DNA of 6,464 nucleotides, from the IMG/VR virus record IMGVR_UViG_2684622618_000013, one strand, 5' to 3'. The position numbers and the translations under genes are program-made. Origin of the DNA: a virus. Lineage: Duplodnaviria > Heunggongvirae > Uroviricota > Caudoviricetes. Below the pieces are notes generated by a model. It did not search any database and was not told the DNA's origin. It saw nothing but the letters and a program-made list of their open reading frames with translations. Within the stretch, counting starts at the first letter, position 1; every line of letters starts with the position of its first letter. Below, one piece after another: positions 1,786-1,996 of this stretch.

Positions 1786-1952
1786 TCGCCATGCTCCGCA
1801 TCACGTTTCTTTTTCTGACCTGCCGGACGTCGCACCGTGATGTACTCCGCCTTTCCCAGGCGAACCAGCACCTCCGCACACGGCTGTGCCACATCACGGA
1901 TATCCCCGGCCCGGGCATCATGCGTGCCCTGCAGATATCGGATCTTTGCCAT
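1731..1952 (-). CDS. Hypothetical small protein (73 aa), doubtful
   Basis: ATG at 1952..1950 in the capsid-portal spacer. Codon third positions are moderately GC-biased, but there is no well-spaced SD (only AGG 2 nt upstream) and the ORF overlaps the portal start by 55 nt in another frame. No recognisable family. Confidence 0.2.
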   Translation of the reverse strand: MAKIRYLQGTHDARAGDIRDVAQPCAEVLVRLGKAEYITVRRPAGQKKKRDAEHGECGTFYGEPEKTRNQDVT

Positions 1953-1960
1953 AACCTGTT

Positions 1961-1982
1961 ACGGGAGGCGCACGCCTCCCGT
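1961..1982. promoter_or_regulatory. Perfect 22-bp GC-rich palindrome / RNA hairpin immediately downstream of the capsid gene stop
   Basis: acgggaggcg-ca-cgcctcccgt: 10-bp arms that are exact reverse complements. On the minus-strand transcript it follows the stop (1999..1997) and an AAGGAGG motif (plus 1983..1989), with no U-tract after it, so it is not a canonical intrinsic terminator. Confidence 0.45.
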
Positions 1983-1996
1983 CCTCCTTATCAGAC

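Follow-up and report, generated by a model that had tools for sequence, protein, structure and literature searches.

A putative split ribosome-binding site arranged around a conserved RNA hairpin between the capsid and portal genes of lambdoid prophages

Here we describe, in a lambdoid prophage of Escherichia coli O157:H7 of the Shiga-toxin-converting type, the junction that follows the capsid gene of the head-morphogenesis module, and we propose that it is probably a split (noncontiguous) ribosome-binding site of the kind described for genes 38 and 25 of phage T4. A strong Shine-Dalgarno (SD) sequence, AAGGAGG, which a sequence-only reading of this DNA had considered an orphan, is most likely the SD of the small gene encoded between the capsid and the portal, from whose ATG it is parted by a hairpin; this assignment is drawn from the conserved SD-hairpin-AUG geometry. 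The hairpin is conserved as sense-strand RNA, and the position of the SD and the distance from the hairpin to the AUG are conserved as well. From these observations we infer that the bridged SD would be functional in ribosome binding and that the level of the mRNA would depend in part on the hairpin. For this region the sequence-only reading had offered, as alternatives, a structured RNA element and a small overlapping gene; the region contains both, and each is tied to the other.

The window (the whole stretch of 6,464 nucleotides analysed here, from IMG/VR record IMGVR_UViG_2684622618_000013) contains the head-morphogenesis module, with all the module genes on the minus strand, and the features previously listed for it (the capsid stop, AAGGAGG, the inverted repeat, the ORF and the portal start) had been correctly located (Table 1). 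The 601 bases around the capsid/small-gene junction are 100% identical in phages 2851 and vB_EcoS_phi330, and the same 601 bases are found in 1,244 of 5,426 complete E. coli genomes, frequently in multiple copies. The product of the prohead protease/capsid fusion gene is named 'phage major capsid protein' in RefSeq. Its stop codon, TGA, occupies 1999..1997 (minus strand), and the 3' end of the gene carries three stops in frame (TGA GTC TGA TAA, 1999..1988, minus strand). In other genera the capsid gene terminates at the TAA position, with the TAA overlapping the SD (TAAGGAG), and in the IMG/VR allele L032 the first capsid TGA is replaced by CGA.

Table 1. Genes of the head module and elements of the capsid/small-gene junction, in window coordinates
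Feature	Coordinates	Strand	Remarks
Terminase small subunit	6219..5656	-	
Terminase large subunit	5659..3998	-	
Prohead protease / major capsid fusion, 645 aa	3934..1997	-	Pfam Phage_capsid and Peptidase_S78; phrog_617
AAGGAGG, strong Shine-Dalgarno	1989..1983	-	Immediately 5' of the hairpin; linear distance to the downstream small-gene ATG, 30 nt
Inverted repeat ACGGGAGGCG / CGCCTCCCGT	1982..1973 and 1970..1961	-	Arms 100% complementary (10/10), 2 nt between them
RNA hairpin ACGGGAGGC-GUGC-GCCUCCCGU, 9 bp + tetraloop	1982..1961	-	dG -17.8 kcal/mol
8-nt spacer AACAGGUU, hairpin base to ATG	1960..1953	-	Length conserved (6-9 nt), sequence not
Small gene, 73 aa	1952..1731	-	phrog_829 (PHROG 829); RefSeq WP_001063099.1
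HK97-type portal, start ATG	1785..1783	-	GGAG 8 nt upstream, within the small gene

Conservation of the N-terminus MWN(P/L)(F/L)RR in relatives confirms 1785 as the start of the portal. The portal gene of the window contains two runs of exactly 50 N (213-262 and 516-565) and, compared with AP012539, the second run (516-565) also misses approximately 115 nt; because of these N runs and missing bases, the apparent 457-aa portal ORF (412..1785) is a masking artefact. The intact portal in AP012539 has approximately 859 aa, and the portal of strain TR01 is tagged 'frameshifted' in RefSeq. At the other end of the module, GTTAAC-containing inverted repeats are clustered upstream of the small terminase gene (6290-6343 and 6400-6417). 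This cluster comprises the pairs GCAAATGTTAAC/GTTAACATTTGC and AAATGTTAAC/GTTAACATTT and the palindrome CAGTTAACA/TGTTAACTG, and these repeats may be terminase or cos-region binding sites, or a regulatory site.

The 73-aa ORF between the capsid and the portal had been called doubtful. Judging from its matches, its homologues in other genera and its codon-position bias, it is a genuine conserved gene. Its product matches phrog_829 over the complete profile (E 3.7e-39, profile positions 1-63 of 63) and is already present in RefSeq as a 'hypothetical protein'. Using the capsid C-terminus as an anchor, we collected 23 loci from other species, and every Enterobacterales locus among them carries a 51-58-aa homologue between capsid and portal. 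Homologues of the small gene occur in at least 15 genera, including Pantoea, Buttiauxella, Enterobacter, Citrobacter, Kluyvera, Atlantibacter, Kosakonia, Erwinia and Serratia, and relatives from four other genera also match PHROG 829. In the alignment of the small proteins, Y6, T10-H11-D12, G16, A26 and L29 are invariant, and the substitutions over the first 38 codons, counted against 13 relatives, are distributed over the three codon positions as 170:129:281, with an excess at the third.

The small protein has a conserved N-terminal domain of approximately 40 aa followed by a basic disordered tail. In relatives, the stop codon of the small gene overlaps the portal ATG (TGATG or TAATG), and translation of the portal would therefore be coupled to that of the small gene. 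In the lineage of the window, the ancestral TAA/TGA stop has become GAA at 1788..1786, which adds 18 codons; the 55-nt overlap with the portal gene, previously noticed and present as described, is thus a consequence of the loss of this stop codon in this E. coli lineage. The window product is a full-length member of PHROG 829, and the 18-codon extension (1734-1787, minus strand) is confined to the E. coli members, without a counterpart in other genera. This extension is also more variable among alleles than the N-terminal domain. In an A-rich run at 1803-1816 (minus strand, CAGAAAAAGAAACG), the proteins P0032, P0034 and P0042 change reading frame, which probably reflects a homopolymer sequencing error.

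An exhaustive HMMER search for distant relatives of the small protein gave 17 matches. Viral contigs scanned with P0057 and P0059 yielded no further relatives, and two viral scans yielded largely near-identical E. coli loci. In the AlphaFold model, residues 1-40 have a pLDDT of approximately 88-90 and form a strand-strand-helix-strand arrangement, followed by the disordered basic tail. The modelled domain superimposes on the N-terminal domain of ribosomal protein L9 (NTL9) with an rmsd of 1.0 Å over 40 residues and a TM(target) of 0.67-0.86, at a weak Foldseek E of 0.06, and it is also similar to many uncharacterised small phage proteins. A Pfam search of the small protein returned no family match, Ribosomal_L9_N included, and a literature search found no paper mentioning WP_001063099.

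The annotation of this interval is inconsistent among public records. RefSeq genomes have the 73-aa frame, which is conserved, AP012539 has instead a 61-aa frame, which is not, and the records of phages 2851 and 1717 (FM180578; NC_011357) show no gene between capsid and portal. We rejected the 61-aa ORF (1921..1736, minus strand; AP012539 35970-36155), as stop codons interrupt this frame in 11 of 13 relatives. It matches a PHROG of its own, phrog_26251, which appears to stem from propagation of the same mis-annotation. The small gene is poorly handled by gene finders that score the spacing of the ribosome-binding site.

The interval between capsid and portal (1786..1996) had been described as a 211-bp spacer. 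Its length is 211 nt as described, but it is not a spacer over this length: only 44 nt are non-coding (1996..1953, minus strand), and the other 167 nt encode the small gene. Within this gap, on the minus strand, the capsid stop is followed by 7 nt, AAGGAGG, the 22-nt hairpin, AACAGGUU and the AUG. The hairpin had been read as a perfect 22-bp palindrome, which holds for the two 10-nt arms, fully complementary to each other, and not in the strict sense for the whole, since 2 nt lie between them. When the minus-strand transcript is folded, as had been proposed, the 9-bp hairpin is obtained, with stem pair probabilities of 0.82-1.0 in a 161-nt context. In the ensemble, AAGGAGG is approximately 65% unpaired and the AUG 45% unpaired, both of them outside the helix, the spacer too is mostly unpaired, and an SD-sequestering structure, one of the earlier suggestions, is therefore unsupported in the window. 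Measured across the base of the helix, the SD is 8 nt from the AUG.

As previously observed, the small gene has no SD at the canonical distance from its ATG. The sole candidate in the window is an AGG placed 2 nt upstream, which occurs in one allele and is missing from the alleles with AGUAACUG, an alternative spacer, or AGUAACAG and from other genera. The absence of a U-tract after the window hairpin also stands: the tail AACAGGUU has 2 U in 8, and the terminator scan gave no flag. Two other candidates were discarded. A mini-ORF within the hairpin (GTG-CGC-CTC-CCG-TAA, 9 nt past the SD and in the frame of the small gene) has its GTG in the loop and is not conserved, the loops at this position elsewhere being GAAA, GAGA, UUCG and others. 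GGGAGG within the 5' arm, considered as an SD, is paired and lies 22 nt from the AUG.

The hairpin is the only perfect Watson-Crick stem of at least 9 bp with a loop of 3-8 nt that the minus strand of the window contains. Mononucleotide shuffles contain a mean of 0.18 such stems, and at least one is present in 12% of the shuffles; the hairpin alone is therefore not significant, and the case rests on its position and conservation. A search of Rfam 15 gave no match at the gathering score, the only hit being sroE on the opposite strand (17.8 bits versus a required 51, E 0.16), and the inverted repeat is not a multi-copy element within the window. The same operon offers a direct contrast at the junction between the terminase large subunit and the capsid gene (3935-3997, minus strand). 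There, the terminator scan flagged GAACCGC-UGCG-GCGGUUU with its trailing U-run (3973..3956), a terminator-like hairpin, and a conventional GGAGG (3944..3940) lies 5 nt ahead of the capsid GTG (3934). The order at that junction is the normal one, with the hairpin before the SD, in contrast to the capsid/small-gene junction, where the SD precedes the hairpin.

The arrangement is maintained across homologous junctions, and the outcome that would have spoken against it, namely that neither the palindrome nor the ORF is conserved, was not observed, as conservation extends to the ORF, the hairpin and the position of the SD. The comparison covered 77 distinct upstream sequences, drawn from variants of E. 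coli, from 18 other genomes and from 80 IMG/VR contigs. In 75 of the 77, a GC-rich hairpin has GGAG(G) at most 3 nt from its 5' foot, and the distance from the 3' foot to the AUG is 6-9 nt in 74 of the 77. GGAG, GAGG, AGGA, GGA and GAG are absent from the spacer in all of the 75 sequences scored (0/75). When bridged over the helix, the SD-AUG distance is 5-9 nt (71/75); the linear distance ranges from 23 to 32 nt, because the length of the hairpin varies from 16 to 22 nt.

The addition of two further capsid-anchored sets brought the comparison to 118 distinct junctions, from Enterobacterales prophages and more distant phages. GGAG, GAGG or AGGA is found directly 5' of the hairpin in 91 of the 94 junctions where the hairpin is at most 11 nt from the ATG, and the upstream SD is missing in 10 of the 11 where it is at least 12 nt away; since the sequences are related, and represent by our estimate about a dozen independent lineages, these counts are descriptive and not a test. 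The long-spacer junctions belong to Serratia, Rouxiella and more distant phages, and an SD-like motif follows the hairpin in 8 of the 11. Two of the three short-spacer exceptions do carry GGAG, which the scoring routine had absorbed into a G·U-extended stem. In L409, which has a short spacer, a G-run takes the place of GGAG, and in the E. coli alleles L063 and L309 one position of the E. coli-type stem is mismatched (G·A or G·G). The hairpin region of L300 (IMG/VR 3300032159_000067) is rearranged or duplicated.

The hairpin is preserved as a structure while its sequence changes. The stem of the Shiga-toxin phages is ACGGGAGGC/GCCUCCCGU, that of the commonest class (Citrobacter/Enterobacter-type) is GGCGGGG/CCCCGCC, Erwinia and Pantoea sp. 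BAV 3049 have GCGGGGA/UCCCCGC, and Serratia has GAGGGGC/GCCCCUC. Further compensatory cases are GGCGAGG/CCUCGCC and AAGUGGGGA/UCCCCACUU; among E. coli alleles, the basal pair passes from A-U to G-C via G·U, and L348 has a G-C pair inserted in both arms. The loops are mostly GNRA or UUCG tetraloops. In the covariation analysis that had been proposed, on an alignment of 35 distinct sequences, 92.6% of the cells are paired in the structure that we named, versus 51-61% with slid partners, and three pairs are altered on both sides, with 8 G·U cells and 0 A·C cells; these counts depend on our named structure, because RNAalifold, applied to the same MAFFT alignment, missed the helix and returned 3 register-shifted pairs with no covariation. 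The named structure and per-sequence folds were used because a gap-rich alignment of 18- and 22-nt hairpins is unsuitable for this purpose. The presence of G·U without A·C indicates that the folded molecule is the sense-strand RNA.

Several other explanations could account for such a hairpin. The one that survives best, which we nevertheless regard as rather unlikely, is that the hairpin is solely an attenuator or 3'-end stabiliser placed after the capsid gene, as a terminator remnant acting as a barrier to 3'-exonucleases, and that the small gene is translated without an upstream SD. Translation would then be SD-independent, on the unstructured U/A-rich spacer, or would occur by re-initiation after the capsid, with GGAGG tethering the terminating ribosomes or having some other role. 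A post-capsid hairpin is indeed conserved well beyond the clade with the upstream SD, as it is found just past the capsid stop in L101-L105 and L376-L404. Many relatives have a U-run (U5-U6 trailing the hairpins of Pantoea and Erwinia), and the homologous hairpin in L084 was flagged as terminator-like. In lambdoid phage L, a terminator is known within the late operon, after the procapsid module, and its role is stated as unknown (PMC8022706). Moreover, the capsid stop overlaps or abuts the SD in several lineages (TAAGGAG), which would suit coupling; however, the distance from stop to SD ranges from 0 to 15 nt across lineages, so precise coupling is not conserved. This explanation also leaves three regularities unaccounted for: a near-invariant GGAG(G) at the 5' foot of the stem amid variable surroundings, a hairpin-AUG distance of 6-9 nt that is held only together with the upstream SD, and a longer spacer with an SD-like motif in the lineages that lack it. 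In addition, the window copy has no U-tract. A stability or attenuator role for the hairpin, one of the earlier suggestions, is plausible, considering the relatives with a U-run and the flag on L084, next to a window copy that was not flagged.

It is improbable, in our opinion, that the junction is a translational repressor or switch, in which the SD is hidden by alternative pairing, or a protein (the small protein being the candidate) binds the hairpin, giving low or autoregulated synthesis of the small protein and the portal. In several relatives GGAG does pair weakly (G·U) with the U-run past the hairpin, this GGAG·UUUU pairing lengthening the stem, and in L360 and L361 it does so by approximately 6 kcal/mol, which would therefore sequester the SD and not present it. 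However, the G·U extension is worth at most approximately 0.1 kcal/mol in the commonest GGAGG class, and up to approximately 3 kcal/mol where CAGGAGG precedes the stem. In the window, the minimum free energy fold pairs part of the SD weakly with an upstream CGUCC, but the SD lies outside the stem and is mostly unpaired in the ensemble, and the E. coli spacers AACAGGUU and AGUAACUG are unable to pair with AAGGAGG. Regarding the protein, its model is L9-N-like and ends in a basic tail, but the fold match is weak and nothing ties the protein to RNA binding. Finally, it is very improbable that the inverted repeat is a protein-binding palindrome acting at the DNA level, or a functionless chance or selfish repeat, as could be argued from its 10/10 match in the DNA and from the frequency of comparable stems in shuffled windows, because pairing is kept while the stem sequence differs by lineage, with sense-strand G·U and no A·C, the position relative to the stop codon, the SD and the ATG is fixed across genera, and neither an Rfam match nor further copies in the window were found. 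The stem was also considered as an RNase III site and rejected, as it has only 9 bp, which is too short for this enzyme.

In the split ribosome-binding site that we favour, the 22 nt between AAGGAGG and AACAGGUU-AUG would fold, in the late minus-strand mRNA, into a very stable 9-bp hairpin. The linear 30 nt between SD and start would be too long for normal initiation, for which the limit is approximately 15 nt; folding would reduce them to 8 nt across the base of the helix, and the 30S subunit would then be able to contact the SD and the start codon together. The hairpin itself appears to be the local form of a post-capsid stem-loop found throughout this head-module family, which in many relatives, together with its U-run, resembles an intrinsic terminator. 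In distant relatives, a hairpin with a U-tract lies right after the capsid gene and is followed by a normal SD, and the hairpin seems, on comparison of these junctions, to predate the split arrangement. Its earlier or additional role is probably transcription attenuation, or protection of the 3' end of the abundant capsid message; either would reduce the expression of the small gene and the portal, of which far fewer copies are needed. T7 has a comparable intra-operon terminator, T-phi, after gene 10.

We therefore propose a dual-purpose element: a post-capsid attenuator or 3'-end stabiliser with the initiation site of the next gene wrapped around it. In the window, termination is unlikely because the U-tract is gone, and the SD, the hairpin and the spacing are retained; the terminator part of this proposal is thus not directly applicable to the window copy. 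One could speculate further that a terminator-type hairpin has been absorbed into the ribosome-binding site across the whole clade of Enterobacterales prophages, with one stem-loop doing both jobs, an idea that we hold only tentatively. If true, the capsid message would be restricted or stabilised by the stem-loop, which, in transcripts that read through it (antiterminated), would also bring together the SD and the AUG of the following gene. One compact element would in this way set the capsid-to-portal expression ratio, in a clade whose members include the Shiga-toxin phages found in over 1,200 complete E. coli genomes. It is also possible that the L9-N-like small protein binds the hairpin and feeds back on its own synthesis and that of the portal.

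For the head operon, the junction suggests a way to lower expression between the capsid and portal genes. Nature provides an allelic series, in which stems, loops and spacers vary and the hairpin either follows or precedes the SD, and a widespread case backed by such natural variation would show that the mechanism is not a T4 curiosity. According to reviews, bacterial split SD sites are documented for only a handful of genes, namely T4 38 and 25 and thrS (PMC3014915; PMC7297116), and proof of the present arrangement has so far been confined to the two T4 genes. A keyword literature search found no paper on a split ribosome-binding site in lambdoid prophages, and the junction described here would be a further case of this rarely documented type of initiation site, supported by comparative data.

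The closest precedents are the T4 sites (Gold 1988; Nivinskas et al. 1999; Malys & Nivinskas 2009; reviewed in PMC3014915 and PMC7297116), for which mutational and probing evidence shows that a hairpin reduces the SD-AUG distance from 22 to 5 nt in gene 38 and from 27 to 11 nt in gene 25. As in these genes, the SD here is far upstream of the AUG (22-27 nt in T4), a stable local hairpin fills the gap, and folding would bring the SD within functional range (5-11 nt in T4). In both cases the site lies between two cistrons of a phage structural operon and is kept in a close clade and missing from distant relatives. In contrast to T4, the present, putative case concerns a temperate lambdoid phage with an HK97-like head module, the genes and sequences are unrelated, the linear and bridged distances are 30 and 8 nt, and the hairpin is apparently derived from a terminator and may serve two purposes. 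Similarly, thrS (1998 work cited in PMC7297116) has a ribosome-binding site that tolerates a stable hairpin between its elements; there, however, the hairpin is an operator bound by the product of the gene, in an autoregulatory circuit, and no such ligand is known here. Lastly, the late operons of phages L and P22 (PMC8022706) share with this module a GC-rich stem-loop right after the most abundantly needed structural gene. Unlike in those operons, the hairpin of the window is without a U-tract and separates the SD of the following gene from its start codon.
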